64,000 nt of DNA, from the NCBI GenBank assembly GCA_035646395.1, contig DASRPK010000118.1, positions 5,920 to 69,919 of the forward strand. The letters run 5' to 3'. The translations under genes and the position numbers were made by a program. Below, one piece after another: positions 3,761 through 64,000 of the stretch (positions within the stretch are counted from its first letter, which is position 1; every line of letters starts with the position of its first letter). The notes beneath the pieces were generated by a model, which saw only the letters and a list, made by a program, of their open reading frames with translations, was not told the origin of the DNA and did no database searches. Origin of the DNA: Gemmatimonadaceae bacterium (GTDB taxonomy: Bacteria; Gemmatimonadota; Gemmatimonadetes; Gemmatimonadales; Gemmatimonadaceae).

Positions 3761-5317
3761 GTGGTCCCCCACGAGCATCGAACCTCGAGCCTCGCGCCTG
3801 CAGCCAGAATGACGTCTCCCGAGTTGCTGCGATTCTTTCACGCCGAAGCCGAGGAATACCTCGATACCCTCGAGGACCTCGCCTCCCGCTCGGGATCGTT
3901 CGAGGCCGGCGCATTCGTGGGGGCCGCTCGAGCACTCCGTGGAAGCGCGACCATGGCGCGCGTTCCGCGCATCGCGGAGATCGCGCTCGTGATGGAACGC
4001 CTGGCGAACGGTGTGCGTGACGGCGAAGTCAATTGGACTTCGGACCTGCGCTACGCCTTGCTCGACACCATCACGGACCTGCGGGAGTTCGTGGGCCGGA
4101 TCGCCGACTGGTCGAGCAACGATGACCGGAAAGCGCTCGACCGTCTCGGGGCGTTGCGCGGCCGTCTTCCCGCCGGGCAGCAGACGCCGCGGACGCCGCA
4201 GGCTGCCGGCACGACGCCAATCTTCATCGCGTTGCAAGCGGCGGCGATCGCCGGTGACCTCGAGACGTACGTCGACGATCCATCGAGTCACGGCCTGGTC
4301 AACGACGTGGTCAACCGGCTGCGCAGCCTGCGGGGGATCGCTGGTGTTGCGGATTACCCGCCGCTGGGTGAAGCCGCAGACGCCGTCGAGCGCACGCTCC
4401 GCGAGCTGGCGCCCGATTCGGTGCTGCGGGACACCGACACCGAGCTGCTCCGCGCCGCCGCGGCGCTGTTCCGCCGCGCCTCCTCCGAGCTGCGCAATCG
4501 CGGCCGCTTCGATGCCACGGCGCCCGAAGTCGACCGTTTCGCCCGCGCCGCCGCCGCGGTGTCGGCGCCCGCCATGAGTGACGCGCCGGTCGTCCGCATC
4601 GAGGAGCTGTTCTTCACGGACGCCGGGCCACATCTCGTTAGGCGTGGCACGACGCCGGTGCGCAGCGCCGAAGCCCGGTTCCGGGAAGAGGTGGTCACGC
4701 GGGCCGAACATCTGCGCCGGCTGGTGGCGGAAGCGCGCGACGCGTCCGACGCGTTTTCGCGTGAACGGGTGCGTCGCGACCTCAGGGCCCACCTCGCCCA
4801 GCTGGACGAATTTGCTCGCAGCTTTGGCGCGCAGCAGGTGGCGTCGGTGGTCGGCGAAGCGGCGGCGGACCCGGCGTTCTCGGAGAGCGTCCTCGACGCC
4901 ATCGACAATGTCGCGCGGATCCTCACGACTCCCGGAATCAACCTGGCCGAGATGGAAAGCCGGTTGGCGATTGGCGAGCGGCGGCGTTGGACGCCGCAGA
5001 GTTCACCGGCAGCGCCCCCGGCTCCATCGGGACATCCGGAGCGTATCCCTGCGCCGTCGCCACGCTCAGGCCGCGCCTTGCGCCAGATGATCGACGCCAG
5101 CCTGACGCAATTGTCGTCTCTGGAAGAAGTGCCGCTCATCGAACCGGTACGCACCGACGACGACGCGATCGTACCGGTTGAGGCTCTGTTATATCGCGGA
5201 CAGGCAGCCCTGCAACGCGCGCGCGAGCTGCGCGATGAGTTGCGGCATCGCGGCACCACCGACCCCGATGCACTCCATGAGTTGTACGACCTGCTGGATC
5301 TCGCCCGCGTCGATTAA
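3761..5317 (+). CDS. hypothetical protein with HPt-like helical repeats lacking the conserved His
   Basis: 518-aa ORF. The N-terminus FFHAEAEEYLDTLEDLA...ARALRGSATMARVPRIAEIALVMERL resembles the CheA/HPt pattern (FxxEAxExLxxLE...HxLKGSA) but has Ala or Arg where the His sits. A second similar segment is RLRSLRGIAGVADYPPLGEAADAVERTL. An alternative ATG start lies at 3809. Confidence 0.5.
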   Translation: MVPHEHRTSSLAPAARMTSPELLRFFHAEAEEYLDTLEDLASRSGSFEAGAFVGAARALRGSATMARVPRIAEIALVMERLANGVRDGEVNWTSDLRYALLDTITDLREFVGRIADWSSNDDRKALDRLGALRGRLPAGQQTPRTPQAAGTTPIFIALQAAAIAGDLETYVDDPSSHGLVNDVVNRLRSLRGIAGVADYPPLGEAADAVERTLRELAPDSVLRDTDTELLRAAAALFRRASSELRNRGRFDATAPEVDRFARAAAAVSAPAMSDAPVVRIEELFFTDAGPHLVRRGTTPVRSAEARFREEVVTRAEHLRRLVAEARDASDAFSRERVRRDLRAHLAQLDEFARSFGAQQVASVVGEAAADPAFSESVLDAIDNVARILTTPGINLAEMESRLAIGERRRWTPQSSPAAPPAPSGHPERIPAPSPRSGRALRQMIDASLTQLSSLEEVPLIEPVRTDDDAIVPVEALLYRGQAALQRARELRDELRHRGTTDPDALHELYDLLDLARVD

Positions 5318-5321
5318 CTGA

Positions 5322-6341
5322 ATGAAAATCGGCTGGCGCGGACTTCTCGGGGTGGTCATCAGCGTCGCCCTGTTGTGGTGGACATTGCGGGGCGAGTCGT
5401 TCAGCGAGATCTGGACCGTCCTGCGCGACTCCAACGCCGCGTTGTTCATCCTCGCGGCAGCGGTGGCGACATTGATGTTTCCGCTGCGGGCCTGGCGCTG
5501 GCGCTACATCCTCGAGCCGACGGCGGGCAAGATCCCGTTTGGACCGTTGTGGCGTGCGACCGCGATCGGGTTCATGGTCAACAACGTCTCTCCTGCTCGA
5601 GCCGGCGAGCTCGCGCGGGCATACGTCCTTTCGCGCGAGACCGGTCGCGTTTCGTTCACTGCTTCGCTGGCATCGCTGGTTGTCGATCGCGTTTTCGACG
5701 CGCTGGTGGTCGTGCTTCTCCTCCTCGTCGTGGTTTCGCTCCCGGGCTTTCCCGCAGACGCCATGGTGGGGGGGTGGCCGATCAGCCGCCTGCTGCTCGC
5801 GGGAGCGCTCGTTGCGATGACGGCGCTCATTGCGCTGGTGCTCGCCGCATTGTTCCCGGAAACCCCGGCGCGACTCTGGGAGCGAGCGTTAGGCACCAGG
5901 GCGCCCCGCCTGATGGCCCGTGGGCGGGACATCCTGCTGTCGTTTGGTGCGGGCCTGAAGGTGCTCCGTGATGTCCGCCAATCGGCAATCGTTTTCCTGT
6001 GGGCACTACTGAGCTGGCTGGTGAACGCCGTCTCATTCTGGATCGCCTTCAAGGCCGTGGGCATCGACGCCCCGTTTACGGCAGCGCTGTTCCTTCAGAG
6101 CCTGTTGGCGGCGGCGGTGGCCGCGCCCTCCGCGCCCGGATTCTTCGGAGTGTTCGAAGCGTCAGCCAAGGTCGCGCTCAGCGTCTACGGGATCGATAAC
6201 ACGCTTGCCGTGAGTTACGCCCTCGGATACCACCTGCTCGGCTGGATCCCCATTACCGTGATCGGCTTCTGGTATCTCGGCAGGATGGGACTGCATTTGA
6301 AGGACATGAAGAACTCGCGGGACGCGACCGCGCCTCGATGA
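5322..6341 (+). CDS. UPF0104 / lysylphosphatidylglycerol-synthase-TM-region-like (flippase-like) membrane protein
   Basis: 339 aa and multi-pass. The N-terminus MKIGWRGLLGVVISVALLWWTLRG...LRAWRWRYIL is typical of this family. Confidence 0.6.
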   Translation: MKIGWRGLLGVVISVALLWWTLRGESFSEIWTVLRDSNAALFILAAAVATLMFPLRAWRWRYILEPTAGKIPFGPLWRATAIGFMVNNVSPARAGELARAYVLSRETGRVSFTASLASLVVDRVFDALVVVLLLLVVVSLPGFPADAMVGGWPISRLLLAGALVAMTALIALVLAALFPETPARLWERALGTRAPRLMARGRDILLSFGAGLKVLRDVRQSAIVFLWALLSWLVNAVSFWIAFKAVGIDAPFTAALFLQSLLAAAVAAPSAPGFFGVFEASAKVALSVYGIDNTLAVSYALGYHLLGWIPITVIGFWYLGRMGLHLKDMKNSRDATAPR

Positions 6342-7255
6342 ACGCGCAAGAAGCCCGGGTGGAAGCGCAGGCAAAAATCAACCTCCTCCTGCGTATCCTC
6401 GAACGCGAGGATTCGGGCTACCACCAGATCGAGACGCTGTTCTGTCGGATTGGCCTGGCGGATACCGTGACGGTGCGCGTCACGCCTCGGGACCACAGCC
6501 TGCTCTGTCACGGCGAGCGAGTCCCCGCAGCGGGACTGGGGCCGCCCGAAAAGAACCTGGCGTGGCGGGCGGCGGCGGCCTACGCAGAGGCCACAGGATT
6601 TCCCACCGGATTCCAGATCACGATCGAAAAGCGGATTCCGGTCGGGGCCGGCCTCGGCGGCGGCAGTGCCGACGCCGGAGCGGTCTTGCGGGCGCTGAAC
6701 GCACTCAATGCGCGTCCGGTGCCACCGGCGACCCTGCAACAGATCGCCTCCTCGTTAGGCGCGGACGTTCCGTTCCTCACGCTGGACGATGCGACGCTGG
6801 CCCTGGCCTGGGGACGCGGGGACCGGCTGGCGGCACTGCCCGGACTCCCGGCCAGCGCGGTCTGGTTGCTGGTGCCCGATGCGACAGTCAACACTGCCGA
6901 GGCGTACCGTTGGTTCGATGAGGCGGGACGCCCGTCGGGAGAATCGGTGATTCCGCGAGCCCGATTCGGCAGCTGGGAAGGGGTCGCGTCGGTAGCCGCA
7001 AATGATTTCGAGCCCGTGGTCGGCGAGAGGATCCCCAGGATAGGCCGCCTGCTGGCGACGCTTCGGAGCGATGAGTTGATGGAGTTGCTGGGTCCATCGG
7101 GCTCGATCCTCATGTCCGGGTCCGGCTCGACCATCGCGGTTGTCAGTGGCCAGCCGCGCGCCCCTCACATGAGCGCCATCCCCCCTCTAGCCGGAGTCAC
7201 CGTGATCGAGACGGAGACCGCTACTTTTGTTGAGCCGGTCGTTCTGACCCATTAG
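6338..7255 (+). CDS. ispE: 4-diphosphocytidyl-2-C-methyl-D-erythritol kinase
   Basis: AKINLLLRILEREDSGYHQIETLF and the GHMP-kinase motif KRIPVGAGLGGGSADAGAVL. ATGA overlap with the upstream gene. Confidence 0.9.
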   Translation: MNAQEARVEAQAKINLLLRILEREDSGYHQIETLFCRIGLADTVTVRVTPRDHSLLCHGERVPAAGLGPPEKNLAWRAAAAYAEATGFPTGFQITIEKRIPVGAGLGGGSADAGAVLRALNALNARPVPPATLQQIASSLGADVPFLTLDDATLALAWGRGDRLAALPGLPASAVWLLVPDATVNTAEAYRWFDEAGRPSGESVIPRARFGSWEGVASVAANDFEPVVGERIPRIGRLLATLRSDELMELLGPSGSILMSGSGSTIAVVSGQPRAPHMSAIPPLAGVTVIETETATFVEPVVLTH

Positions 7256-7397: not shown

Positions 7398-8351
7398 ATG
7401 GACCTTTTGCCGGGTGTGCTCCGGGGATTCAAGCTGCTTTCCGGAAACGCCAACAGAGGACTCGCCGAGGAAATCGCCCGACATCTCGGAGTTGAGCTGT
7501 GCAGGATGACGCTCACTCGCTTTGCCGACGGTGAAATCTTCGTGCGGATCGATGAGAATGTCCGCGGTGCGGACGTTTTTATTGTCCAGCCGACCAATCC
7601 GCCGGCGGAAAACATCATGGAGCTGCTGCTCCTGATCGATGCCGCCAAGCGGGCGTCGGCGGCGCGGGTGACCTGCGTCATGCCGTATTACGGCTACTCG
7701 CGGCAGGACCGGAAGGACCAGCCGCGGGTGTCGATCGGGGCGAAGCTGGTGGCAAATCTGATCCAGACCGCGGGCGCTGACCGGGTGCTGGGACTCGATT
7801 TCCACCAGCATCAATTGCAGGGGTTCTTCGACGTCCCCGTCGATCACCTCTATGCCTCCCCGGTGCTGGTATCGCACTTTCGGAAGAAGCAGTTCACCGA
7901 TCTGGTGGTCGTTGCACCGGATGTCGGGTCGGCCAAGATGGCTCGCGGCTTTGCGCGGAAGCTCGACGCGGCGCTCGCGATCATCGACAAGCGACGCACG
8001 GGGCCTAACGTGGCCGAAGTGCTGAACGTGGTTGGTGAAGTCGAAGGACGGGATTGTCTCATCCCCGATGACATGATCGATACAGCCGGCACCGTCTCGG
8101 AGACGGCGCGGGCCCTGAAAAAACTGGGAGCGCGGGACATCTACATCTGCGCAACGCATGGACTGCTGTCTGGTCCGGCGGTCCAGCGGTTGAAGGACGC
8201 CCCGATTTCCGAGGTGGTAATCACCGACTCGGTGGTCGTGACGGAAGAGAAGCGGTTCGACAGGTTACGGGTGTTGTCCGTGGGTGAGCTGCTCGCGAAG
8301 GCGATTCGCTTTACGCACAGCGAGCAGAGCGTGTCGAGTCTGTTTGATTAG
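7398..8351 (+). CDS. prs: ribose-phosphate pyrophosphokinase
   Basis: 317 aa. KLLSGNANRGLAEEIARHLG...RFADGEIFV...YYGYSRQDRK...DDMIDTAGT motifs. Confidence 0.95.
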   Translation: MDLLPGVLRGFKLLSGNANRGLAEEIARHLGVELCRMTLTRFADGEIFVRIDENVRGADVFIVQPTNPPAENIMELLLLIDAAKRASAARVTCVMPYYGYSRQDRKDQPRVSIGAKLVANLIQTAGADRVLGLDFHQHQLQGFFDVPVDHLYASPVLVSHFRKKQFTDLVVVAPDVGSAKMARGFARKLDAALAIIDKRRTGPNVAEVLNVVGEVEGRDCLIPDDMIDTAGTVSETARALKKLGARDIYICATHGLLSGPAVQRLKDAPISEVVITDSVVVTEEKRFDRLRVLSVGELLAKAIRFTHSEQSVSSLFD

Positions 8352-9823: not shown

Positions 9824-9856
9824 CGGGATGGGGGATGTCGGATGGGGGATGGGGGA
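9801..9856. repeat. GGATGGG-type tandem tract (left arm of the inverted pair around the four-helix-bundle gene)
   Basis: cggatgtgggagatgggaactaacgggatgggggatgtcggatgggggatggggg. Confidence 0.7.
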
Positions 9857-10351: not shown

Positions 10352-10392
10352 TCCGACCTCCGACCTCCGACATCCGCCATCCGTTGGGTTAG
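10352..10392. repeat. inverted partner tract (CCGACCT/CATCCGC units)
   Basis: The reverse complement of tccgacctccgacctccgacatccgccatccgttgggttag reads ctaacccaacggatggcggatgtcggaggtcggaggtcgga. It shares ctaac...ggatgg.ggatgtcgga with 9819-9845. Confidence 0.65.
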
Positions 10393-11060
10393 TCGACGGG
10401 AGCCATCACCCTCGCATCATCCGTTTTCGGGTCGTTCACCAGCAACCCGATCTCCCACGTTCGCATTTCGTCCGGTGAGAACGGACCAACCAGACGTCTC
10501 ACGTCTGCAATCTTCGTGGATTGGTCCAGCCACGCCTTATAGTCTCCGGGTCGAATAATGACTGGCATCCGATCATGAATCGGTTCCAGTAATTCGTTAG
10601 GCTCCGTGGTCAGAATCGCGCACGTAATCAGCCACTCGCCGCTCTCCTTCGCGCGCCACGCTTCCCAGAGCCCGCCGAGGGCAAAGATCTCGCCGTCTCG
10701 GATCGCGATCGCATAGGGCTTCCGCCGCTTCTGGCCCGGCACGTCCTGCCACTCATAAAAAACGTCGGCGGGGATAAGGCACCGGCGTTTCTGCATCGCC
10801 GCGCGAAAGGCGCCCTTTTCGAGCGCCGTATCGGACCGGACATTGGCCATCCGATTGCCAATGCTCGGGTCCTTGGCCCAGGACGGGACGAGTCCCCACC
10901 GTATCATCTCGGCCTCGGTGCCCCCCTTTCGTTCCCGCACCACCAGGATGTCGGAGCTGGGAGGGATGTTGTAACGCGGGACGAGGGGCGGGAGCTCGGT
11001 GATTCCGAAACGCTCCAGTTTCAGGGCTTCAGGGCGCGTGAGTCCGAATCGGCCGCACAT
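10389..11060 (-). CDS. SOS response-associated peptidase (SRAP/YedK, abasic-site processing protein)
   Basis: The start is set at ATG 11060 so that the protein begins MCGRFG (catalytic Cys2). WGLVPSWAKD motif is present. The ORF-track N-terminal 47 aa translate a repeat tract. Confidence 0.85.
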   Translation of the reverse strand: MCGRFGLTRPEALKLERFGITELPPLVPRYNIPPSSDILVVRERKGGTEAEMIRWGLVPSWAKDPSIGNRMANVRSDTALEKGAFRAAMQKRRCLIPADVFYEWQDVPGQKRRKPYAIAIRDGEIFALGGLWEAWRAKESGEWLITCAILTTEPNELLEPIHDRMPVIIRPGDYKAWLDQSTKIADVRRLVGPFSPDEMRTWEIGLLVNDPKTDDARVMAPVD

Positions 11061-11070
11061 GATTTGGATA

Positions 11071-11203
11071 ACGGATGGGAGATGGCGGATGGGAGACAAC
11101 GCCTCCACACTAATCTGAAGCGTGGCACTGGCCGCGATGTGGTCGTGGTTGTCCCCCCTCCCCCATCTGCCCTCCGACATCCGAGCCCTGCCATCCGCCA
11201 TCG
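11071..11203. repeat. GGATGGG-family long hairpin in the SRAP / rpsF divergent region
   Basis: Left arm acggatgggagatggcggatgggagacaac. Right arm gtcccccctcccccatctgccctccgacatccgagccctgccatccgccatc. Confidence 0.65.
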
Positions 11204-11306: not shown

Positions 11307-11666
11307 ATGATACGCCGTTACGAGGCGGTGTACATCTTCGACTCAGCACTCGAAGACGCCGCCATCAACGAGAAGATCTCGCGGTTCCACGGTCTTCTCC
11401 AAAGTCCGGAAGACATCTCGGTCGATCACTGGGGGCGCAGGCAACTCGCCTACAAGATCGGCCCGCGCGAAACCGGCTACTACGTCATCGCAAAGTTCCA
11501 CGCGACGTCGACCGTGCTCCCCGAGTACGAGCGCGCGATGAAGCTCGACGATGGAGTCGTCCGGTACCTGATCACGTTGTTCGAGCACGAAGTCGGTGCT
11601 CCCCCCATGACCGAAGAGGAGCTCGCCCGTGCCCGTGCCCAGGAGGAAGAAGACGATGAAGACTGA
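11307..11666 (+). CDS. rpsF: 30S ribosomal protein S6
   Basis: [15 protein letters not shown]...[10 protein letters not shown]...GYYV with an acidic tail. GGGAGGA lies 11 nt upstream of ATG 11307. Confidence 0.9.
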
Positions 11667-11892
11667 TTCCATGCGGCGTCCGACGAAGAGCTGCCCCTTC
11701 TGCGAGACCCGCGTGCACTACGTCGACTACAAGGATGATCGCACGTTAGGCCGCTTCATTACGGACCACGGCAAGATCCTGCCGAGCCGGCTGAGCGGCG
11801 TCTGTGCGCGCCACCAGCGCCAGCTGTCAACCGCGATCAAGCGCGCCCGTTACCTCGCGATCATCCCCTACATCCGCGGTCAGCAGGCCTAG
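11656..11892 (+). CDS. rpsR: 30S ribosomal protein S18
   Basis: [60 protein letters not shown]. Overlaps the rpsF end. Confidence 0.9.
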
Positions 11893-13701: not shown

Positions 13702-14082
13702 ATGAAGTCGTCATCGGCCACACGGCCAAGTCTTGCTGCCGCACAGACGGCAGCCGCGCTCTGTCTCGACCTGAAAGCGAACGATGTTGTGATCCTGGAC
13801 CTGGAAGGTGTCACCGACATGACCGACTGTTTCGTGATCGCCAGCGGCTCGTCGGACACCCACGTCAGGGCCATCGCGGAATTCGTCGCCGAAGAGATGA
13901 AGAAGCGCGGGTTTCCAGCACATCACGTCGAAGGACTCAATCAGGGGCGCTGGGCGCTCGTTGATTTCGTGGATTTCGTGGTGCACGTCTTTCATCCCAC
14001 GTTGCGGTCGTTCTACCAGCTGGAACGACTGTGGGGGGATGCGGCGGTGGTCGCGGTGGATCCGCAAGGAGCAGGCACATGA
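13702..14082 (+). CDS. rsfS: ribosome silencing factor RsfS (iojap family)
   Basis: From ATG 13702: AAALCLDLKANDVVILDLEGVTDMTDCFVIASGSSDTHVRAIAEFV...WALVDFVDFVVHVFHP...YQLERLW. Confidence 0.85.
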   Translation: MKSSSATRPSLAAAQTAAALCLDLKANDVVILDLEGVTDMTDCFVIASGSSDTHVRAIAEFVAEEMKKRGFPAHHVEGLNQGRWALVDFVDFVVHVFHPTLRSFYQLERLWGDAAVVAVDPQGAGT

Positions 14083-17000
14083 GGCATCTCAGACAGGCAA
14101 GCCTGGTAGCGCTAGCGCTGATCCTCGTCGCGGTCGTCGCGGCACCGGTCAAAGCCCAGCAGTACTTCGGCCAGAACCAGGTCCAGTTCGACAAGTTCAA
14201 CTGGAAGGTCAAGGAAACGGCGCACTTCCTGATCCACTTCTATCCGGAAGAGCGCGACGGCATCAACGATGCCGCGCGCATGGCCGAGCGCTCGTATGCG
14301 CGCCTGTCCCGGATGCTCAAGCATGAGTTCCGCGAAAAGAAGCCGCTGATCCTGTATCGCTCCCGCGGCGACTTCGGGCAGAACAACGTGACGGGTGACC
14401 TGGGCGAAGGCGTCGGCGGTGTGACCGAGGCGCTGCGCCACCGGATCCTCCTCCCCTTCACCGGCGACTACAAGAGCTTTGAGCACGTTCTCGCGCACGA
14501 GCTCGTCCACGCGTTCCAATACGACATCTTTGCGCGCGGCCGGGCCGGCAACGGGCTGCAAACGCTGGCGCAGGTCGATCCACCGCTCTGGTTCGCGGAG
14601 GGCATGGCGGAATACCTGTCGCTCGGACCGAACCACATCCTCACGCAGTCCTGGGTCCGTGACGCGGCACTGAACGGTACGCTGCCCACCATCGAGCAGA
14701 TGACCGAGCGGCCGGACCTGTTCTTCCCCTACCGCTACGGAGAGGCGCTCTGGGAGTACATCGGTGGACGTTGGGGTGACGACGTCATCGGTGAGATCAT
14801 GAACTCCGCGCCTAACGTCGGCATCGACCGTGCCTTCAAGCGCGAGCTCGGCCTGAGCCTCGAGGAGTTGAGCGAGGAGTGGCGGGACGCGATGCAGGTC
14901 AAGCACCTGCCGCAGGTCTCCACCCTGGACCGCGCCCGCAAGTTCTCCGAGCCGTTGTTGTCCCAGCGCAAGACCGGTGGCTTCTCGCAGCTCTTCATCG
15001 CCCCCGCGCTCTCGCCGGACGGCAAGCTGATTACCTTCATCTCGCAGGGGAGTTTCCTGCGCGGTGAGGTTTTCCCCGATCTCTGGTTAGGCGATGCCGA
15101 GACGGGCAAGCGGATCAAGCGCCTCGTCCAGACGACTACGTCGCCGGACTTCGAGGAGCTGCGCCTGCTCTACTCGCAGAGCGCCTTCTCACCGGATGGC
15201 AAACTGCTCGCATTCTCCGCCCAGCGCGAAGGTCGCGACATCCTGTACGTGATGGACGTCCAGCGGCGGAAGACAATCAAGCGGTTCGACGTCGGCCTCG
15301 AATGGGTGACGTCGCCCAGCTGGAGTCCTGACGGCAAGCAGATCGTGGTGAGCGGATCGAGCACCGGCCTGACCGACCTGTTCGTGATCGACTACGAGAC
15401 GGCGGCCCTGCGCCGCCTGACGAACGACAAGAACGGCGACCTGCAGCCGGCGTGGTCCCCCGACGGGCAGCAGATCGCCTTCGTGACCGAGCGCGGTGAG
15501 ACCACCGACCTCGACATCCTGCGACTCGGGACGTGGAAGGTCGCGATCTACGACTTCCGCAACGGGAACATCGAGGTTGTCGGCGGCCAGGGCGGGCATA
15601 ACCTGAACCCGCAGTGGGCGCCCGATGGAAAGGCGATCGCCTACATCAGCGATCGCACAGGGATCGCGAACGTGTTCCTCTACGACGTGGGCAACAAGGA
15701 ACACTACCAGCTGACGAACGTGATCGGCTCGGTCAGCGGCATCACCGAGTACAGCCCCGCCATCACCTGGGCGCGTCAGGCCGACAAGCTCGCGTTCACG
15801 TACTTCGAGGACGGCGACTACACGGTCTGGATGACGAACAACCCGCGGCGGCTGCGCGACCAGCCGTTCCGGCCCAAGCCGGTGGTCGTGGCGTCGGCGC
15901 AGACACCTAACGCGGCCACCGCGGCGCAGACCATGGCCGCGCTGCGGCAGGCGGAGGCGCAGCGCGGCGAAAGCATGCGGGCAGCGATCGACGCTGCGGC
16001 ACGCGACTCAGGATCGGCAGGCGCCGATCCACGCCGGCAGTCCATCTATCGCGCGTCCACGGGCATCCGGCCATCGGCCGATATCCCGGGCATGAACGAA
16101 CGGTCGGGCGCGAGCCCGGTGAGCGTGGCGCAGTTGCTCGACAGCGTGAACCTGGCCCTCCCCGACACGACAACCTTCCGCGAATACGACTACAAGGTTG
16201 GATACCGGCCGGAATCGATTTACCGGCCGAGCATCGGCTACGCGCAGGACAATTACGGTCGTGGCCTGTATGGCGGCGCGGGCGTGATCCTGGCCGACCT
16301 GCTGGGCAACAACCAGATGATCGTTGCCGGCCAGGTGAATGGCCGGTTGAGCGAGGCCTTCCTCCTCGGCGCCTACACCAGCCTCGGGAATCGCCTGCAG
16401 TACACCCTGGGCGTGTCCCAATCGCCCTATTTCTTCGTGCAGGACTATGGATGGACCCCGTTCGGTGACGGCAGCGCGAATTTTCTCGAGGAGTACGTCG
16501 TTGCGCGCTACATCGTGCGTGAGGCTTTTGCCATCGGCATGAGACCATCCAACCGCTTCAACCGGATGGAGCTCGGTGTTTCTGCCAATAACGTGTCACG
16601 CTCCATCGCGGTGTATAGCCGCGCGGTGGATGGGTACACTGGCTACGGCACGCAATGGCTCGTGGACAGCATCATCAACTTCCCTGGCCTGAATTACATC
16701 GCGCCATACGTAGCGTACGTGTCGGACAATTCATTGTTCGGATATACCGGCCCGATCGCCGGCCGGCGCTATCGCGTACAGGTGCAACCGGTCGTGGGCG
16801 GACTGCGCTGGACGGAATTTTCGGCGGACTACCGTCGTTATGTGCCCCTGCTCTTCAATTTCCTCACGGTCGCCTGGCGGACCCAGACCAGCATCGGCGT
16901 CGGACCCGACGAGATGATGTTCCCGAAGTACCTCGGTCGCGCGGACTTTGTGCGCGGATACGACCGTGAACAGTATGCCGCCCAGTTCTGCGGCGGAATC

Positions 17001-17370: not shown

Positions 17371-17481
17371 CAACAAGCAAGAAGCAAGAAGGGAAGGAAC
17401 GAAACGGTTGAAATCTGAGGGCCCGAGCGTGTTAGCGCCGGGCCCTCAGTCGTTCCCTTCTTGCTTCTTGCTTCTTGCTTT
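17371..17481. repeat. GCAAGAA-armed nested hairpin with GAGGGCCCG core, 3' of the OMP fusion gene
   Basis: aacaagcaagaagcaagaagggaaggaacg...ctgagggcccg agcgtgttagcgc cgggccctcag tcgttcccttcttgcttcttgcttcttgctt. Confidence 0.85.
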
Positions 17482-23860: not shown

Positions 23861-23936
23861 GGACGTGGGAGATGGGACGTGGGAGGAAGCTGATCACGTC
23901 TGATCAGGTTTCTCCCACATCCCACGTCCCACGTCC
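23861..23936. repeat. GGGACGT/GGGAGAT heptamer-armed hairpin, 3' of smc
   Basis: ggacgtgggagatgggacgtgggaggaagctgatca cgtc tgatcaggtttctcccacatcccacgtcccacgtcc. About 30 of 36 arm positions pair by hand alignment. Confidence 0.8.
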
Positions 23937-28842: not shown

Positions 28843-28844
28843 CG

Positions 28845-34992: not shown

Positions 34993-35007
34993 AAGGGCGT
35001 TAGGCTC

Positions 35008-41816: not shown

Positions 41817-41958
41817 CGCACGGTGAGAGCCAGCGGCGGTTCTGTTTCATGAGAATGACCAAAGGAACCTAACATTTGCGCGCGGTCGGCGGTCACGGCA
41901 TCTCATGAACTGGCGGACTATCGGACGGTTCCCTAGCTTCGCGTTGGGCGGTCCTGAC

Positions 41959-50402: not shown

Positions 50403-50431
50403 GGGATGGCGGATGGCGGATGACGGATGGG
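50403..50431. repeat. GGATGGC heptamer tract between the NtrC-like stop and the next start codon
   Basis: gggatggcggatggcggatgacggatggg. Confidence 0.75.
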
Positions 50432-53057: not shown

Positions 53058-53235
53058 CGTCCGGATCCAGTTCCAGCGCGAGGTGCGTGAAGCCCTCTTC
53101 CTTTGCAAGGCGCAGCACGTCGGCACGCACCGCCGCTGTCAGGTAACCCGGGGCCGCGACTATTATTGCCAGGCGATCCCGCACTTCAATGCGGCACGTG
53201 ATGCCCTCCTGCGCAAGGCGAGACGTTAGGTTCAC
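53035..53235 (-). CDS. small hypothetical protein (66 aa)
   Basis: GTG 53235 overlaps the larE-like stop (GTGA). The product is VNLTSRLAQEGITCRIEVRDRLAIIVAAPGYLTAAVRADVLRLAKEEGFTHLALELD... It is supported only by coupling geometry and plausible composition. Confidence 0.35.
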   Translation of the reverse strand: MNLTSRLAQEGITCRIEVRDRLAIIVAAPGYLTAAVRADVLRLAKEEGFTHLALELDPDGAALPGN

Positions 53236-54074
53236 GCCGCCGCCACGCCTTCGAGCACGTTCAGGGAACCGGAACGGAAGCCTCGCAAGTCGATCGCCAC
53301 ACGACGGAACCCCGCGGCGCGGACGGCCTGCACCAGCCGCTGCGCATTGTCCGGCAACAACCACTCGTCGATCAGTCGCGATTCGAGCTCGATCCGGGCG
53401 AGGTCATCATGATGCCTGACGCGGAGGTCGCCGGTGACCCCGAGTGCCCGAAGCCCCCGCTCGGCACGATCGATCTGTTGCAGGCGTTCTGGCGTTACTG
53501 GGGTGCCGTAGGGAATCCGCGACGCCAGGCATGGAGCAGACGGTTGCGACCATGTCGCCAGTCCGCGCGCGCGCGAAAGTTCGCGAATCTCTGCCTTGGT
53601 GAGCCCTGCCAGGGCCAGCGGCGACTGGACGCCATGCTCCGCGGCCGCCCGAGAGCCAGGACGATGACCCGTAAGGTCATCGGCATTGGTCCCGTCGACG
53701 ACGGTCGTCATCCCCTGGTCGCGGGCCATGGGACACAACACGGCCCAGAGCACACTCTTGCAGAAATAGCAGCGATTCACGGGATTTGCGGCGTAGCGCG
53801 GATCGTCCACTTCATCCGTAGCGACGATCCGGAGCTCGATATCCCACTGGGCGGCGAACGCGAGCGCCTTGTCCGATTGATCGTTAGGCACGGAAGGGCT
53901 GCGGCCGAACACCGCCAGGACGTTCCGTCGCCCGAGCACCTCACGAGCGACCACGGCCAGGTACGTGGAATCGACGCCACCGGAATACCCGATCAGCACC
54001 GATCGCTGCTCGCGCAGCCACTCGGCGAGACGGCTTTCCTTGAGCCTGGCAGTGTCGATCGAGGGTGACTCCAT
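53232..54074 (-). CDS. PP-loop ATP pyrophosphatase, LarE-like (TIGR00268-type)
   Basis: VLIGYSGGVDSTYLAVVA (SGGxDS PP-loop) plus a conserved CYFCK motif. Confidence 0.75.
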   Translation of the reverse strand: MESPSIDTARLKESRLAEWLREQRSVLIGYSGGVDSTYLAVVAREVLGRRNVLAVFGRSPSVPNDQSDKALAFAAQWDIELRIVATDEVDDPRYAANPVNRCYFCKSVLWAVLCPMARDQGMTTVVDGTNADDLTGHRPGSRAAAEHGVQSPLALAGLTKAEIRELSRARGLATWSQPSAPCLASRIPYGTPVTPERLQQIDRAERGLRALGVTGDLRVRHHDDLARIELESRLIDEWLLPDNAQRLVQAVRAAGFRRVAIDLRGFRSGSLNVLEGVAAA

Positions 54075-54945: not shown

Positions 54946-55022
54946 GGGGCATGGGGTACAGGGCATGGGGTCTGGGATTGCAGCCCCATGCCCTATGCCC
55001 CATGCCCCATTGCCCCATGGGG
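54946..55022. repeat. GGGGCAT-armed hairpin in the esterase / NMO divergent region
   Basis: ggggcatggggtacagggcatggggtctggg attgca gccccatgccctatgccccatgccccattgccccatgggg. Confidence 0.8.
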
Positions 55023-58048: not shown

Positions 58049-58053
58049 ACAGA

Positions 58054-58088
58054 GCAAGAAGCAAGAAGCAAGAAGCAAGAAGCGAGAT
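58054..58088. repeat. GCAAGAA heptamer tract (4 units plus a degenerate one) directly after the arginase stop
   Basis: gcaagaagcaagaagcaagaagcaagaagcgagat. No inverted partner was seen. Confidence 0.8.
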
Positions 58089-58122
58089 GACAAACTGCGG
58101 CGGCACTTAATCGAAGCCTAAC

Positions 58123-59217
58123 GTGACCGAGGAACTGCAGTACACGCCACCTGACTTCGATTCGCCGCACCTCCGCGCGGCTCCACCGGCGCGCGTGGTG
58201 ACCTGCGAAGCGGACGGTGTCTTGCCCGAGGGCTTTTTCGCGACGACGAACCTGCCTTCCTACGTGAAAGGCGAAGATGGCCTGTGGCGCATGCCCCGCG
58301 AGCCCCGCATGGACGGCTGTCTCGTCAGGGATGAGAAGGGAGGTTGGTGGGTTCGCGAGGGACGTCGCGTGCGTCACGGCGACGCGGTCGTGGTGGGCAA
58401 GGCTGAAGATGGCAGTGAAGGCGTCCTGGTGCACGCGCACGGCTTCGAGCCACCGGGAAGCGTCACCGGTGACTTCCACTTCATGTCGAGCCAGGTCTCA
58501 CGCGAGAAGCCCATCGACTATGGGATGCTGGCGCGGATGCTCGTCGCCGAGCGACGGCGCGGGGGCTACGTCCTGTGGGTAACCGGCCCGGCGCTCGTGC
58601 ACTCCCGGGCGCGGGACAACCTGGTCTGGTTCATCCGTCACGGGTTCGTGCAGGCGTTGCTGGCGGGGAATGCGGTGGCCGTCCACGACATCGAGGCCGC
58701 GGTGGTGGGTACCACGTTAGGCATGACGGAACAGGGGATGCCCACCGAGGGTGGTCACTCCGCGCACATGCGCGCAATTAATTCAGTGCGGCGATCGGGT
58801 TCGATCGCCGCTGCCGTGCGGGATGGATTGATCGCCGAGGGTATCATGCACGCGTGCGTGATCGAGGAAGTGCCGTTCGTGCTGGCTGGATCGATCCGCG
58901 ATGATGGCCCTTTGCCGGACGTGTTCACCGATGCGGTCGCGGCACAGGACGCGATGCGAGCACACACGGTGAAGGCGACGATGGCGGTGATGGTCGCGAC
59001 CGCGCTGCACTCGATTGCGGTCGGCAACATGCTGCCGGCCTATTACGAGGATCCGGAGCGCGGAATTGTGGAGCTGCCGACGATCTGTGTGGATGCAAGC
59101 GAGTTTCTGGTCAGCAAGTTGAAGGATCGGGGGACGCACCAGGCGGTAGGCGTGGTGACGAATGCGCAGGATTTCATGAGCATTTTGAGGGCGGCGGTGG
59201 AGGAGGAGATGAGTTGA
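58123..59217 (+). CDS. TIGR00300-family (LOR/SDH conserved-region) protein, possible ornithine cyclodeaminase-type enzyme
   Basis: 364 aa, GTG start. The family call is from memory of this family's pattern (…WVTGPALVHSRARDNLVWFIRHGFVQALLAGNAVAVHDIE…), together with its position directly after arginase. Confidence 0.5.
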   Translation: MTEELQYTPPDFDSPHLRAAPPARVVTCEADGVLPEGFFATTNLPSYVKGEDGLWRMPREPRMDGCLVRDEKGGWWVREGRRVRHGDAVVVGKAEDGSEGVLVHAHGFEPPGSVTGDFHFMSSQVSREKPIDYGMLARMLVAERRRGGYVLWVTGPALVHSRARDNLVWFIRHGFVQALLAGNAVAVHDIEAAVVGTTLGMTEQGMPTEGGHSAHMRAINSVRRSGSIAAAVRDGLIAEGIMHACVIEEVPFVLAGSIRDDGPLPDVFTDAVAAQDAMRAHTVKATMAVMVATALHSIAVGNMLPAYYEDPERGIVELPTICVDASEFLVSKLKDRGTHQAVGVVTNAQDFMSILRAAVEEEMS

Positions 59218-59230: not shown

Positions 59231-59283
59231 GGCAGTCCGCGGCATATGGCAGTTCGCGGTGTACGGCAGTCTGCGCTTTTTTT
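59231..59283. terminator. three tandem ~17-nt GGCAGTNCGCGG units followed by a T7 run in the TIGR00300 / comM convergent spacer
   Basis: ggcagtccgcggcatat ggcagttcgcggtgtac ggcagtctgcgc ttttttt. The T-run suggests an intrinsic terminator for the plus-strand gene. The stem was not rigorously folded. Confidence 0.4.
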
Positions 59284-60805
59284 ACTCGCGCTGATCCGTC
59301 CGATAATGCAACGCCTCAGCCACATGCCGCTGTGTGATTCCGGGATCGGCATCGAGGTCTGCGATCGTTCGCGCCACCTTGAGGACGCGATGATATCCGC
59401 GGGCTGAGAGCGCGAGCCGCGTCGCGGCTGTGGCAAGCAATTCCCGCGCCGATGCGTCGATTCCACCATTCGCATCCAGCCAGCGGCCGTGCACGTGTGC
59501 ATTGCACGTCACCGACGCAAATGATCTGTAGCGGAGGGCCTGTCGAGCCCGAGCCAGTTCCACACGCTCGCGAATGACGCAGGACGCCTCCGCCCGCGAC
59601 GACTCGGCCAGCACCCGCAGCGGAACGGCCGGAACCCGCACGGTCATGTCGATCCGGTCGGCCAGCGGACCGGAGACTTTCGAGCGATGGCGAGCAACGT
59701 CGAGCGCAGAGCAGGTACAGCTCGTGCCGTTCGGGCTACCGAGCCGGCCGCATGGGCAGGGATTCATGGCGCCAACCAGCGTGAAGCGCGCGGGAAACGC
59801 GACTGACCGCGCCGCCCTGGCAATGACGACGCGCCCTTCCTCCAACGGCTGGCGCAGGGCATCCAGCACGTGACGCGGCATCTCCTGGAGCTCATCGAGA
59901 AAGAGGACGCCGTGGTGTGCGAGGCTTACCTCCCCCGGGCGCGGTCCGCTGCCTCCGCCGATCAGCGCCGCCGCCGACAACGTGTGATGTGGCGCGCGAA
60001 ACGGTCGACGGCCGGAGGGTGCTTCGCCAGGCGTCACCAGTCCCGCCACCGAGTGGATCGCCACCACATCGAGCGCTTCCGCTTCGCCTAACGCGGGAAG
60101 GATCGTGGGCAGCCGGCGGGCGAGCATCGTCTTGCCGGTCCCGGGCGGGCCGATCATCAGGACCGCATGGCCGCCGGCGGCCGCGATCTCGAGGGCCCGC
60201 TTGGCCAGTGGCTGACCGGCCACGTCCGCCATGTCCGCGGCGTCCTCCGGCTCATTCACCAGCGCAGCCACCGCCGGCGGTGCGGACAACGCGTCGCGGC
60301 GAAGGGCGTCCACCAGCATCGCCAGCGACTCGGCTGCACTGATTTTGATGGATGACACGAGAGCCGCTTCGGGAACGTTCGGCAGCGGGAGGATGAGGGT
60401 CGGATCCGTCGGTGCGCGGGCGAGCAGTCTGGCAACGGGCAGTACGCCCCGCACTGGTCGAAGTGACCCATCGAGCCCCAGTTCGCCGAGTGCGACGATG
60501 CCGTCGGTGGCACCATTGCGAAGTTGTCCGGTCGCCACGAGAAGCCCTAACGCGATCGGCAGGTCGAAGGCGGTGCCGTCCTTACGGGTATCGGCTGGGG
60601 CGAGATTAATAGTGACCCGCCTGGGAGGCACCTGGAAACCCGAATTGACGACCGCCGCCGATACGCGTTCCCGGCTCTCGCGAACCGCACCCGCCGGTAG
60701 ACCAACTATGGTCCATTGAGGTAGTCCGGCGGCGACGTCTACCTCGACCACAACGTGGTACGCGTCAATCCCTACGACGGCGGCCGATGCGATCGCGGCG
60801 AGCAT
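59282..60805 (-). CDS. YifB/ComM-family Mg-chelatase-like AAA+ ATPase
   Basis: N-terminal Lon-like domain (VVEVDVAAGLP...IVGLP), Walker A GPPGTGKTMLARRL, GVLFLDELQE, C-terminal ChlI-type region. Confidence 0.9.
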   Translation of the reverse strand: MLAAIASAAVVGIDAYHVVVEVDVAAGLPQWTIVGLPAGAVRESRERVSAAVVNSGFQVPPRRVTINLAPADTRKDGTAFDLPIALGLLVATGQLRNGATDGIVALGELGLDGSLRPVRGVLPVARLLARAPTDPTLILPLPNVPEAALVSSIKISAAESLAMLVDALRRDALSAPPAVAALVNEPEDAADMADVAGQPLAKRALEIAAAGGHAVLMIGPPGTGKTMLARRLPTILPALGEAEALDVVAIHSVAGLVTPGEAPSGRRPFRAPHHTLSAAALIGGGSGPRPGEVSLAHHGVLFLDELQEMPRHVLDALRQPLEEGRVVIARAARSVAFPARFTLVGAMNPCPCGRLGSPNGTSCTCSALDVARHRSKVSGPLADRIDMTVRVPAVPLRVLAESSRAEASCVIRERVELARARQALRYRSFASVTCNAHVHGRWLDANGGIDASARELLATAATRLALSARGYHRVLKVARTIADLDADPGITQRHVAEALHYRTDQRE

Positions 60806-60909
60806 GCGGTACGATCAGTCCACGCGCGCTGCGTGTCTTCATCGTCACAATGCGCATCGAAGCATTGGAACGCATCGAAGGCCGCGACTAGCGACCCGCA
60901 ACCTGTTTT

Positions 60910-60969
60910 CACGACTCACGATTCACGATTCACGAATCACGAATCACGAATCACGAATCACGAGTCACC
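60910..60969. repeat. CACGAAT heptamer tract (about 8.5 units) between the GGDEF-EAL stop and the comM start
   Basis: cacgact cacgatt cacgatt cacgaat cacgaat cacgaat cacgaat cacgagt cacc. Confidence 0.85.
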
Positions 60970-63344: not shown

Positions 63345-63429
63345 GGATCTTTACTGCAGACGTGTCCGTGCCGCCTCCGTCACATTCGCGGGTTCGTCCC
63401 GGGCGCCGTTGGCGCGGGACTGGATGACG

Positions 63430-64000
63430 TTAGGGGTTTCTTGCCGGAACGGCGGCTTTCAGCGCCTGTTCGCGTACGTTCTCGGGCTCCGGCGTGAAAT
63501 CCTCACCGGGGTTGATGAACCGGTCGTGCTCAAACCCGTATTGCCGGTCGTACAGCTCTCGATACCGGCCACCTAACGCCATCAACTGGGGGTGGGTTCC
63601 GCGCTCGACGATCCGGCCTTCTTCCATGACCAGGATCTGGTCAGCGGTCACGATCGTCGACAACCGGTGGGCAATGACAAACGTCGTCCGGCCGGTGCGC
63701 AGCGACCGGAGTCCGTCGCGGATCATCGCCTCACTCTCGCTGTCGAGGCTCGATGTCGCTTCGTCGAGGATCAGGATGCGGGGATCGGCCAGAATCGCCC
63801 GGGCGATCGCCACGCGCTGGCGCTGGCCGCCGGAGAGCTTCACGCCGCGTTCGCCGACAATCGTGTCGTACTGCTTTTCCCACTTCTCGACGAATTCATC
63901 GACGTGAGCGATGCGCGCCGCGCGGCGCACCGCTTCGTCCGTCGCGTCCGGATGCGCGTAGGCGATGTTCTCCCTGATCGTCCCGTCGAACAGGAAATTG
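63430..64000 (-). CDS. ABC transporter ATP-binding/permease protein, MsbA-like exporter (5' part outside window)
   Basis: [16 protein letters not shown] signature and [12 protein letters not shown] Walker B. The frame stays open upstream of the ORF-track Met to the window end (…[24 protein letters not shown]…). Confidence 0.85.

Follow-up and report, generated by a model that had tools for sequence, protein, structure and literature searches.

An asymmetric octamer, CGTTAGGC, is scattered at far above chance frequency through the window (the whole 64-kb stretch of DNA analysed here, from an uncultured soil member of the Gemmatimonadaceae), and it recurs in some relatives of this bacterium and in some phages, with an overall excess over chance of ~30-70 times. 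We tentatively propose that it may be a lineage-specific uptake or kin-recognition signal, accumulated by molecular drive and akin to the DUS of Neisseriaceae (GCCGTCTGAA and its dialects) or the USS of Pasteurellaceae (Hin-USS AAGTGCGGT, Apl-USS). Until now a comparable pattern was known solely in a few other groups of bacteria, where it forms the "passwords" for DNA uptake, and we found no earlier description of this motif.

Abundance of the motif

On its plus strand the window carries 15 copies of CGTTAGGC and 14 of GCCTAACG, together 29, each exactly where the original prediction had placed it; the hexamer core likewise lies at the sites predicted (26 GTTAGG and 26 CCTAAC), with C preceding 43 of the 52 cores and coming next in 36. 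The consensus is CGTTAGGY, a non-palindromic double-stranded DNA word used in either orientation, in which all 8 positions are informative. Apart from a slight bias towards purines at positions -1 and +1 the flanks of the copies are unconserved, in keeping with the predicted lack of conservation beyond 8 nt.

With both strands counted, dinucleotide-preserving shuffles (n = 100) yielded 0.99 +/- 1.04 copies (maximum 6), Markov models of order 1-3 yielded 0.9-1.55 (order 3, 1.55), and codon shuffles (n = 300), which left all protein sequences and the codon usage as a whole unchanged, yielded 2.33 +/- 1.13 (maximum 6). By z-score the word ranks first among the 8-mers of the window. Depending on the null, the enrichment is ~13-30-fold, so the "order of magnitude" estimated beforehand understated it. 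Nor is it confined to the window, as it extends to population contigs, ~17 other Gemmatimonadaceae species and phages.

The counts might in principle reflect no biological signal and arise from the base composition, from codon usage, from a recurring peptide or from a dispersed repeat, and Markov models of order 4-6 indeed predict 18-30 copies. However, this fit is circular because the sub-words consist almost wholly of motif copies, and the codon-aware null gives 2.3 copies against 29. Use of four frames and two strands, unconserved flanks, and only 3 copies in 987 kb of 62 related species with equal GC and proteins likewise refute this explanation, to which we give practically no credence.

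Sequence context of the copies

Ordinary housekeeping genes harbour 28 of the 29 copies (17 sense and 11 antisense to transcription), which occupy all four non-stop frames on both strands, and the signal is one of DNA. About half of all copies read xCG-TTA-GGC, TTA being the rarest leucine codon. As GCG-TTA-GGC this sense form lies on the + strand in an LPG_synthase_TM gene (copy 5887-5894, Ala-Leu-Gly; gene 5322-6341 +), smc (23156-23163; 20296-23853 +) and a metallo-beta-lactamase-fold gene (32902-32909; 32433-33299 +), and on the - strand in genes for an S41 peptidase (CtpA-like; 26928-26935; 26595-28175 -), hydantoinase B/oxoprolinase (33540-33547; 33408-35057 -), hydantoinase A (35827-35834; 35008-36930 -), an Lnb-domain membrane protein (37350-37357; 36927-38177 -) and a sigma-70 family member (46706-46713; 46514-47443 -), and in comM (Mg-chelatase-like; 60086-60093; 59282-60805 -). 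ACG-TTA-GGC occurs in rpsR/S18 (11744-11751 +, Thr-Leu-Gly; 11656-11892 +), a second time in the hydantoinase B gene (33801-33808 -) and in an ArgZ-like gene (58715-58722 +; 58123-59217 +), TCG-TTA-GGC in ispE (6753-6760 +, Ser-Leu-Gly; 6338-7255 +), and CCG-TTA-GGC in a SPOR-domain protein gene (18360-18367 +; 17516-19012 +). The other sense copies read C-GTT-AGG-C (Val-Arg) in an Hpt-like gene (4636-4643 +; 3809-5317 +), CAC-GTT-AGG-CTG (His-Val-Arg-Leu) in the thymidylate kinase gene (28848-28855 -; 28156-28902 -) and GGC-GTT-AGG-CAA in a Ser/Thr kinase gene (43086-43093 +; 41905-44463 +).

Antisense copies, given here by the coding strand of their genes, mostly contain CCT-AAC: GGG-CCT-AAC-GTG (Gly-Pro-Asn-Val) in prs (8003-8010 -; 7398-8351 +), GAG-CCT-AAC-GAA in a SRAP-domain gene (10595-10602 +; 10389-11180 -), GCG-CCT-AAC-GTC in a PD40 beta-propeller protein gene (14810-14817 -; 14079-17366 +), GAG-CCT-AAC-GGG in a lolA-like gene on the + strand (26327-26334 -), GCG-CCT-AAC-GTG in the hydantoinase A gene (35388-35395 +), CCG-CCT-AAC-GCG in the Ser/Thr kinase gene (43587-43594 -), GCG-CCT-AAC-GGG in a hypothetical gene (51885-51892 +; 51802-52452 -) and GTG-CCT-AAC-GAT in an NAD-synthase-like gene (53882-53889 +; 53232-54074 -). 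In another frame lie AGC-CTA-ACG (Ser-Leu-Thr) in the hydantoinase B gene (34998-35005 +), GGC-CTA-ACG in a MiaB-like radical-SAM gene (41112-41119 +; 40425-41816 -) and CGC-CTA-ACG in a BTAD-domain gene (46307-46314 -; 45751-46506 +). Only one copy is intergenic (58116-58123 -), and its last base coincides with the initial G of the GTG start codon of the ArgZ-like gene. Among the genes named in the original prediction, prs, ispE, rpsR, smc, the sigma-70 gene and comM do bear the 8-mer, whereas lepB holds only the hexamer core.

The density is 1 copy per 2.2 kb in the window and reaches 1 per 0.7 kb in one related locus (L027). Gaps between copies range from 261 to 5179 bp, and their CV of 0.75 compares with 0.97 for random placement (p ~0.07). 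Copies are thus evenly placed, and in density and evenness they compare with DUS and USS. Motif orientation tracks neither replichore nor, strongly, transcription: the 15:14 split rejects a Chi-like skew of 75% (p = 0.006), division by gene strand leaves no residual polarity in the window, and pooled host loci have a majority-strand fraction of ~0.62, near the no-skew expectation. The even split argues against Chi or KOPS. Non-palindromic, flankless and spread over unrelated housekeeping genes in equal orientations, the word is unlike these two and like the iterated motifs of the DUS, USS and HIP1 type, which supports the likeness originally suggested. With KOPS and related architecture-imparting sequences (AIMS), the FtsK-orienting polar octamers, it shares a non-palindromic octamer found across the chromosome, but not the strong replichore polarity that defines them.

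Gain of copies against codon bias

Among the 45 TTA codons of the window, 14 lie within an exact motif and 24 are followed by GG; the motif accounts for 14 of the 54 [ATSP]-Leu-Gly sites and for 8 of the 20 Pro-Asn-[VADEG] sites. At orthologous sites non-bearer species have the synonymous CGCTSGGC. For instance, the ispE copy at 6753 is found in L007, L010, L050 and L085, with CGTTAGGT in L008 and CGCTCGGC or CCCTCGGC in most remaining species shown. L007, L008, L010 and L050 share the prs copy at 8003, which elsewhere is GGCGAACG or GGCCAACG (Ala-Asn); the PD40 copy at 14810 is common to L007, L011, L022 and L085, and the L007 ortholog of the Hpt-like site at 4636 reads CGTCAGGC. The rpsR site at 11744 carries the motif in L085 and L027, while closer relatives of the window have CGCTSGGS or CCCTCGGC, so this gain was parallel. 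Such same-site gains in separate clades affect S18, ispE and Pth, with no sign of recent gene transfer as their source.

The routes to the motif differ: CTS to TTA requires two transitions, whereas GGCSAACG to GCCTAACG requires transversions and an Ala to Pro change. This diversity among precursors indicates that the end product is favoured and not one mutation type; a directional force builds the motif at permissive sites despite codon bias. A simple by-product of VSP-type single-mismatch repair is disfavoured by these routes, by an enrichment of ~37-fold in pooled bearers, and by the transition neighbour CGTTAGGT being enriched instead of depleted. Of the three mechanisms first considered, the mismatch-repair by-product thus loses ground, while uptake or recognition appears to fit best.

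Distribution among relatives

Among the 80 related species compared, the motif is an all-or-nothing trait. Pooled bearers have 122 copies in 251 kb against 3.3 expected (37-fold), and the 62 non-bearers 3 in their 987 kb against 7.1 expected. Bearers fall into at least two well-supported clades (bootstrap 100 and 90) with non-bearers interspersed, and the nearest relatives of two separate bearer clades have zero copies. DUS and USS, by comparison, are family-wide, and such mixing of bearers and non-bearers within one family speaks against an uptake signal.

This patchiness looks as if a mobile determinant had been acquired and lost, as for methyltransferase or restriction-modification genes. 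A bearer-only modification enzyme could mark CGTTAGGC or a sub-word, with a repair or restriction ratchet favouring the marked strand or allele; new copies would be shielded in any resident replicon, phages included, and the motif might then also gate incoming DNA once taken up. One 8-mer shared by two separate clades and its build-up in phages of different types agree with this, and HIP1 (GCGATCGC), a highly iterated palindrome of cyanobacteria, offers a precedent with 15-300-fold enrichment, synonymous retention, cognate orphan methyltransferases and an influence on transformation that depends on methylation (PMC5861425, PMC4390886, bioRxiv 10.64898/2026.06.24.733823). Like HIP1 and other such palindromes of cyanobacteria, our motif is an octamer enriched tens- to hundreds-fold, spread via point substitution and not insertion, held in all frames against codon preference, and polyphyletic and patchy, with variant words in some lineages and some positional conservation between genomes. 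Unlike HIP1, it is an AT-rich word in a GC-rich genome, is not palindromic, and has no cognate methyltransferase identified. Contiguous 8-bp asymmetric methyltransferase sites, which this fully informative word would require, are, to our knowledge, rare, and the window encodes no DNA methyltransferase or restriction gene (the methyltransferases RsmI and PrmC act on rRNA and protein). We therefore consider a modification-based origin unlikely, albeit worth keeping in view.

One-off variants are enriched in bearers only (CGTTAGGT 11-fold, CGTTATGC 9-fold, GGTTAGGC 5-fold, CGTCAGGC 3-fold), and in L068 the excess of CGTCAGGC (12 observed, 0.8 expected) looks like a dialect of the motif. Graded enrichment of this kind is also expected from an affinity landscape, and the copies could form a binding-site array for an abundant, bearer-only chromosome-organising or nucleoid-associated protein, under weak selection for folding or segregation. 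The signal is orientation-independent and even across all gene classes, and HIP1 was once proposed for such a role owing to its periodicity (PMC5861425). However, ~1 site per kb is too dense for known arrays such as those of parS, matS, Noc and SlmA, with tens of sites in a genome; unrelated phages, one of them transposable, have no obvious need for 10-20 sites per 10 kb; and patchy loss among close relatives would be odd for a core architectural function. Such an array seems to us improbable.

Occurrence in phages

At least three unrelated phage contigs (L207, L163, L257) hold 8-20 copies per 10 kb, ~70-fold above expectation; L207 is a Mu-like temperate phage, and a related phage, L208, has zero copies. 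In Pasteurellaceae, USS accumulate in temperate phages and not in large lytic ones (PMC6776037), a pattern that the phage contigs here mirror. Strand bias is marked in single contigs (18:6 in L163, 7:1 in L260), and in L207 the orientation flips between two divergent arms. A bias this strong could hint at an orientation-dependent function, contrary to an uptake signal.

The flip is the geometry expected with nucleases entering from both genome ends, and would suit a Chi-like self marker, up to which a RecBCD/AddAB-type helicase-nuclease or a defence system degrades DNA; chromosomes would need the word at short intervals and phages would copy it to escape degradation. Like Chi, an asymmetric word of 5-8 nt (8 in E. 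coli), the motif is lineage-specific, strongly over-represented and abundant in some phages, Chi-rich phages being known (PMC3784561, PMC12315714), and its spacing is somewhat evener than random. Unlike Chi, it is unskewed over 64 kb of chromosome, and its density and fold-enrichment exceed those of E. coli Chi. Phage polarity is also inconsistent relative to genes (mostly antisense in L207 and L163, mostly sense in L260 and L257), and part of the bias stems from TTA avoidance and use at TAA stop junctions. A Chi-like role thus strikes us as doubtful.

Discussion

Returning to an uptake or kin-recognition word, we infer that it is read by a component of uptake or transformation. Some step in DNA exchange would be sequence-specific and favour word-bearing fragments, most likely through binding of the word by the DNA-uptake machinery in natural transformation or through a closely linked post-uptake acceptance. 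Word-bearing alleles would displace wordless ones via homologous recombination (molecular drive, possibly with weak selection), and the word would therefore accumulate wherever protein coding permits, chiefly at X-Leu-Gly and Pro-Asn-X sites. Temperate phages with time in the chromosome would accumulate it too, and lineages no longer possessing the specificity would shed it fast, since the AT-rich codons that make it up are disfavoured. There is also precedent: of the short motifs that are hyper-abundant and unskewed, all those whose function is known or emerging act in natural transformation, namely DUS, USS and, according to bioRxiv 10.64898/2026.06.24.733823, HIP1.

In the literature searched we found no report of natural competence in Gemmatimonadota and none tying this phylum to uptake sequences; within the window comM, itself widespread, is the only competence gene. 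The motif differs from DUS and USS in its patchiness within one family and in a host phylum without demonstrated competence or a known receptor. At only 8 bp, without flanking AT tracts or an extended consensus, it also falls short of the 10-12 bp of DUS and of USS with its 9 bp core and AT tracts, which counts against an uptake role, and unlike DUS it is enriched neither in terminators nor as inverted pairs. In common with both it is a hyper-abundant short word, ~1 per 1-2 kb, with equally frequent orientations, one-off variants and a possible dialect, and it is common to related species. As with USS, it lies mostly within ordinary genes at coding-permissive positions and reaches host-like density in temperate phages (PMC6776037).

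Abundance of the word in the window

A direct count bore out every position named by the original prediction: the plus strand of the window carries the non-palindromic 8-mer CGTTAGGC (hereafter the word) 15 times and its reverse complement GCCTAACG 14 times, and GTTAGG and CCTAAC, the two orientations of the hexamer core, are found 26 times each. At the window's G+C content of 64.5%, these 29 copies compare with 0.99 ± 1.04 (maximum 6) expected on both strands from 100 dinucleotide-preserving shuffles, and with 0.9–1.55 under Markov models of order 1–3. The claimed enrichment also survived a codon-aware null in which synonymous codons were permuted with proteins and codon usage unchanged (2.33 ± 1.13, maximum 6, in 300 shuffles), an expectation that is itself inflated because the word's own rare codons are already in the codon pool. 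Markov models of order 4–6 expect 18–30 copies in the window, a prediction that is circular because GTTAGG is preceded by C in 43 and followed by C in 36 of its 52 occurrences. Among all 8-mers of the window, the word has the highest z-score. The consensus reads CGTTAGGY, with information at all eight positions and a weak preference for purines at −1 and +1 outside them, and the copies are evenly spaced (gaps of 261–5179 bp; CV 0.75, compared with 0.97 when copies are placed at random; p about 0.07). The variant CGTCAGGC, one substitution away, occurs 24 times against about 6–7 expected.

Artefact is thus excluded as a reading of the word, since a product of composition or codon usage is ruled out by the dinucleotide, Markov order 1–3 and codon-shuffle nulls as well as by 62 word-free relatives of equal GC content and proteins. 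The hallmarks of REP/MITE-type dispersed repeats are likewise absent from the 29 copies in the window, which are almost all intragenic (28 of 29) and show no conserved sequence past the core, their flanks being unconserved; such repeats are ruled out. The HIP1 octamer GCGATCGC was rejected as a signal in the window, being only about 2-fold above expectation, which is ordinary in a GC-rich genome.

Gene context and codon cost

By its gene content the window is ordinary chromosome, with rsmI, pdxJ, ispE, prs, rplY, pth, rpsF, rpsR, rplI, smc, a DAHP synthase gene, lolA, ctpA, tmk, prmC, prfA, crp, hydantoinase genes, miaB, and genes for a Ser/Thr kinase, a sigma-70 factor, LepB (lepB), an aldehyde dehydrogenase, an NtrC-type regulator, arginase, ComM and a GGDEF-EAL protein; some of these calls were checked against Pfam, and the remainder were made with a self-trained codon model. 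The 64 kb hold neither a DNA methyltransferase nor a restriction gene nor a mobile element, and comM (59282–60805) is the sole competence gene.

Within genes, the word is read in sense as xCG-TTA-GGC (Ala/Thr/Ser/Pro-Leu-Gly) in 14 copies and as C-GTT-AGG-C (Val-Arg) in three, while the antisense copies give coding strands of G-CCT-AAC-G (Pro-Asn) in eight cases and GC-CTA-ACG (Leu-Thr) in three. As four frames and two strands are in use, the signal lies at the level of DNA and not of peptide or RNA, and a peptide motif is ruled out. Furthermore, the word is written against codon preference: CTA (28/2053) and TTA (45/2053) are the two rarest leucine codons in the window, yet the word spells 26% of its [ATSP]-Leu-Gly and 40% of its Pro-Asn-[VADEG] tripeptides. 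The exact word contains 14 of the 45 TTA codons and 24 of the 45 are directly followed by GG, so that local use of this rare codon is largely a by-product of the motif.

A patchy trait of Gemmatimonadaceae

In an exact-protein look-up, the only matches to the locus were contigs from soil metagenomes (L001–L006) of 99.2–99.9% nucleotide identity, which have the same word copies as the window. A Prs-based scan, limited to a single genome for each species, gave 80 loci (74–96% Prs identity), nearly all from MAGs of Gemmatimonadaceae or the broader Gemmatimonadota and one labelled 'uncultured bacterium'; the analysis covered 64 kb for the source genome and 3–21 kb for each relative. The enrichment reaches well beyond the window, as about 17 Gemmatimonadaceae species, together with phages, have the word. 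In the bearers, that is, 17 loci and the window (251 kb), 122 copies were observed against 3.3 expected, a 37-fold excess, whereas the other 62 species (987 kb) hold three against 7.1 expected, so that presence or absence among the 80 species is nearly binary. Densities per 10 kb are 14 copies in L027, 13 in L024, 10 in L025 and L085, 4.8 in L022 and 4.5 in the window, and 1–3 in the relatives of the window's own clade (L007–L012, L014, L015); bearers of low density were identified from 1–4 copies each (for instance, four vs 0.2 expected in L007). The MAGs of bearers include DATEKK01 (L027), JAICUE01 (L085), DASUGD01 (L022), JAJKIV01 (L024), DATCIJ01 (L007) and CAWAGQ01 (L010, on a 1.1-Mb contig), and non-bearers include OY970320, which is a complete chromosome, CAVSYH01 and JBOHTO01. 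Variants are enriched in bearers only, namely CGTTAGGT 11-fold, CGTTATGC 9-fold, GGTTAGGC 5-fold and CGTCAGGC 3-fold. The 9.8-kb locus L068 (DATKDD010000155.1) contains CGTCAGGC 12 times vs 0.8 expected and CGTTAGGC twice, possibly a dialect with C at position 4.

In a neighbour-joining tree of 11 concatenated proteins (100 bootstraps), the window's clade comprises nine taxa (bootstrap 100), each with at least one copy, including L008, which with one copy in 10 kb falls slightly below the bearer threshold. This clade is nested in a larger one (bootstrap 100) that holds the bearers L085 and L022 as well as the non-bearers L081, L052 and L069, and the bearers L027, L064 and L068 fall in a separate clade (bootstrap 90) with 11 non-bearers. 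Since bearers are mixed with non-bearers in two clades, the trait is patchy, reflecting either an old trait with several losses or a determinant that moved between lineages; the tree, built from 5–11 linked genes and with short deep branches, does not fix the number of events.

Parallel gains by different routes

Codon alignments of 14 orthologous genes, supplemented by a blastn comparison, indicate how copies arise. Sites that hold the word in a bearer spell the same amino acids in GC-rich form in most non-bearers, for example as CGCTCGGC or CGCTGGGC (X-Leu-Gly). The majority of the 22 motif positions in the alignments are private to a single lineage. Among the others, prs position 605 has the word in common within a clade, S18 position 88 has it in the window, L085 and L027 and not in L007–L012, and at ispE position 439 and Pth position 469 separate clades share it while nearer relatives lack it. 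Because per-gene identities track the species tree, such shared sites are parallel gains, and recent gene transfer between bearers is unsupported as their source.

The word is reached along different routes, two transitions leading from CTS to TTA and transversions from GGCSAACG to GCCTAACG, the latter with an Ala-to-Pro exchange in the conserved enzyme Prs; it is therefore the finished word that is favoured and not one kind of mutation, and these varied substitutions rule out a single mutational signature. One of the candidates in the original prediction, a by-product of VSP-like repair, is disfavoured in its simple form by the same diversity of routes and by the transition neighbour CGTTAGGT, which is enriched and not depleted. 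Of the window's sites, 3 of 7 are conserved in L007, which is about 76% identical in nucleotide sequence, compared with 17.5% for all 8-mers (p = 0.11), and in the reverse direction 3 of 3 aligned sites are (p = 0.005). Conservation is thus only weakly to modestly above background, and turnover is high. CTAG is strongly depleted in the window (26 observed vs 69 or 131 expected at order 2 or 1), and the candidate intermediate CGCTAGGC is absent from bearers (0 vs 6.6 expected), from which it follows that CTG probably passes to TTA via TTG.

The word in phages

A total of 2.9 million IMG/VR contigs were scanned for two word copies 40–90 bp apart, and about 95% of the viral contigs picked up held either chance pairs or repeats, tandem or dispersed, that include the word. 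Unrelated contigs of 32–58% G+C, in which CGTTAGGC lies in longer repeats with conserved flanks, were rejected as scattered-motif carriers (L210, 1023–2240; L256, 614–3654; L182, 3756–6173; L106, 7–108; L126, 43–137; L149, 2555–2761), and any census of motif density must filter such repeat-borne copies.

A few contigs of 62–67% G+C carry the word scattered and at very high density: L111/L207 has 21 copies in 18 kb (0.30 expected), L163 has 24 in 11.8 kb (0.35 expected), and L257 and L260, of 7.8 kb each, have six and eight. With genes for a large terminase, portal, head protein, holin, repressor-like regulators and Mu-type transposition proteins, L207 (IMGVR_UViG_3300037261_000237) is a temperate transposable (Mu-like) phage, and its host is probably a member of the Gemmatimonadaceae, phage hosts being assigned from motif and G+C content only. 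L163 (IMGVR_UViG_3300049057_000028) encodes both large and small terminase subunits, and L257 terminase, portal and head-morphogenesis proteins; L260 gave no PHROG matches. There is no nucleotide similarity between L163 and L207, a TerL-based search around L207 found one distant relative, and the viral contig L208 (60% G+C, terminase 38% identical) has 0 copies.

Copies in L207 and L163 are antisense to sense 30:8, vs 43:59 in hosts (Fisher p = 1e-4), and the TTA frame is avoided in both. Eight of their copies sit exactly at gene junctions, where they read as a GCC-TAA stop, in many cases with CG-ATG, the start of the next gene, immediately after it, and 18 of the 21 copies in L207 read TCGTTAGGC. 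The tendency is reversed in L260 (seven sense, one antisense) and L257 (4:2), and phages therefore have no common polarity. A proven uptake signal is known to behave in this way: the USS of Pasteurellaceae has built up in all known phages that lysogenise the family and in most of its prophages, reaching roughly the density of the host, but not in large phages, which are probably lytic (PMC6776037).

Possible readers of the word

A lineage-specific, orientation-independent force at the DNA level writes a single word of 8 bp into chromosomes, and into the phages resident in them, despite codon bias. It acts repeatedly and in parallel, and in related lineages the word is lost altogether. What reads the word is inferred. 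Sense and antisense copies in the window stand at a mild 17:11, equal in plus- and minus-strand genes and with no residual strand effect, and plus and minus copies in host loci at 14:8 (L027), 15:6 (L085), 3:7 (L022) and 4:5 in a further locus. Such polarity is unlike that of Chi, KOPS or AIMS. Leading-strand skew is the hallmark of Chi, whereas the window is at 15:14, which rejects a Chi-like skew of 75% (binomial p = 0.006), with the proviso that GC skew here follows gene orientation, leaving replication direction unreadable and an ori or ter in the middle of the window conceivable. The third-ranked reading, a Chi-like self-marker of a nuclease or defence system, would suit the phage densities and the strand bias of individual phages, but the chromosome is unskewed, and we consider it improbable. 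KOPS and AIMS are replichore-polar, with more than 80–90% of copies in one orientation per arm, unlike the word in the window and in relatives. The reading of the copies as sites bound by a chromosome-organising protein ranks fourth and is the least probable of the four.

Of the known systems, DUS/USS and HIP1 come closest. As with DUS/USS, a single short word stands far above the expectation from composition and codons (in 64 kb and in loci of 3–21 kb) and is unpolarised in the window, occurring in both orientations; it is common to related species, with a possible dialect in L068, and has accumulated in phages such as the temperate L207, although here the distribution is patchy and not family-wide. 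The reader of DUS/USS is the uptake machinery, and molecular drive can explain their accumulation. Tentatively, we rank first the reading of the word as a signal for uptake or kin recognition when DNA is exchanged. Like HIP1-type motifs, the word spreads by substitution and uses all frames, but those motifs are palindromic octamers, whereas CGTTAGGC differs from its reverse complement. A HIP1-like ratchet linked to DNA modification, in which a mobile enzyme would account for the patchiness, comes second and seems rather unlikely; it may also be the uptake reading seen from the other side. Recent work links HIP1 (for background, PMC5861425, PMC4390886) to methylation-dependent transformation efficiency and proposes it as an uptake sequence (bioRxiv 10.64898/2026.06.24.733823).

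More speculatively, and as a long shot, the word might be not an uptake tag but an orientation-independent "self password" of a putative mobile nuclease or defence module, with phages mimicking self. Chromosomes acquiring such a module would have to maintain CGTTAGGC at roughly one copy per kb, even where this entails rare TTA codons or altered amino acids, and phages would copy the word to 10–20 per 10 kb and so pass as self. If true, self/non-self discrimination would gain a new class, one that resembles Chi in principle but lacks its replication polarity.

Full-text literature searches found no earlier description of the 8-mer, of Gemmatimonadetes uptake sequences or of Gemmatimonas competence. 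The word is best filed with the hyper-abundant, unskewed genomic password motifs, in a new phylum, its unusual features being a short, asymmetric, flankless form, a patchy phylogeny and a very high density in phages. To our knowledge, genome-wide unskewed password words are known only from Neisseriaceae, Pasteurellaceae and cyanobacteria, in all three of which they are linked to natural transformation. Gemmatimonadota, an abundant and mostly uncultured soil phylum for which we know of no competence, would be a fourth, independent case, for which the motif leads one to expect that DNA is exchanged sequence-specifically or that self is recognised by some other system. Sister lineages with and without the word, parallel gains at identical codons and a measurable codon cost also offer a natural experiment on how such a word originates, spreads and decays. 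Having picked a handful of phage contigs from 2.9 million, the 8-mer could serve as a marker that ties phages, plasmids and metagenomic contigs to hosts and flags recently acquired DNA.

Short tandem arrays

The window also contains many short tandem arrays of 7-bp units in 3–9 copies, the unit differing per site (9825–9856, 10352–10383, 17457–17480, 23913–23936, 26448–26478, 26537–26595, 33377–33407, 34963–34991, 50404–50430, 54983–55019, 58053–58087 and 60909–60968); those compared with the gene table lie between genes. Those at 26448 (AGGAAGC) and 26537 (CTTCCTG), between the convergent lolA and ctpA, are mutual reverse complements and would therefore form a long hairpin. The arrays may be terminators or regulatory spacers.

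In related loci, TCTCCCAT, AGACGGGA, CCCATTCC, CTCCCTAC and AGAATTCA were rejected as alternative passwords, as they belong to intergenic 7-bp tandem arrays, and the enrichment of ACTGCAGT is spurious, a product of a tandem array of 18–20-bp units (ACTGCAGTTGATGTACCC...) at the contig start of L033 (1–230). Apparently intergenic 7-bp arrays occur in L007 (11059–13737), L012 (978–7739), L054 (9907–13804), L076 (10938–19776), L083 (8115–19463) and L064 (10053–13965), and in these loci several sites share one unit that is specific to the lineage (ATGGGAG, AGACGGG, CCCATTC, CTCCCTA/ACTCAGT or AGAATTC). The 7-bp arrays thus look like a family-wide feature separate from the 8-mer.
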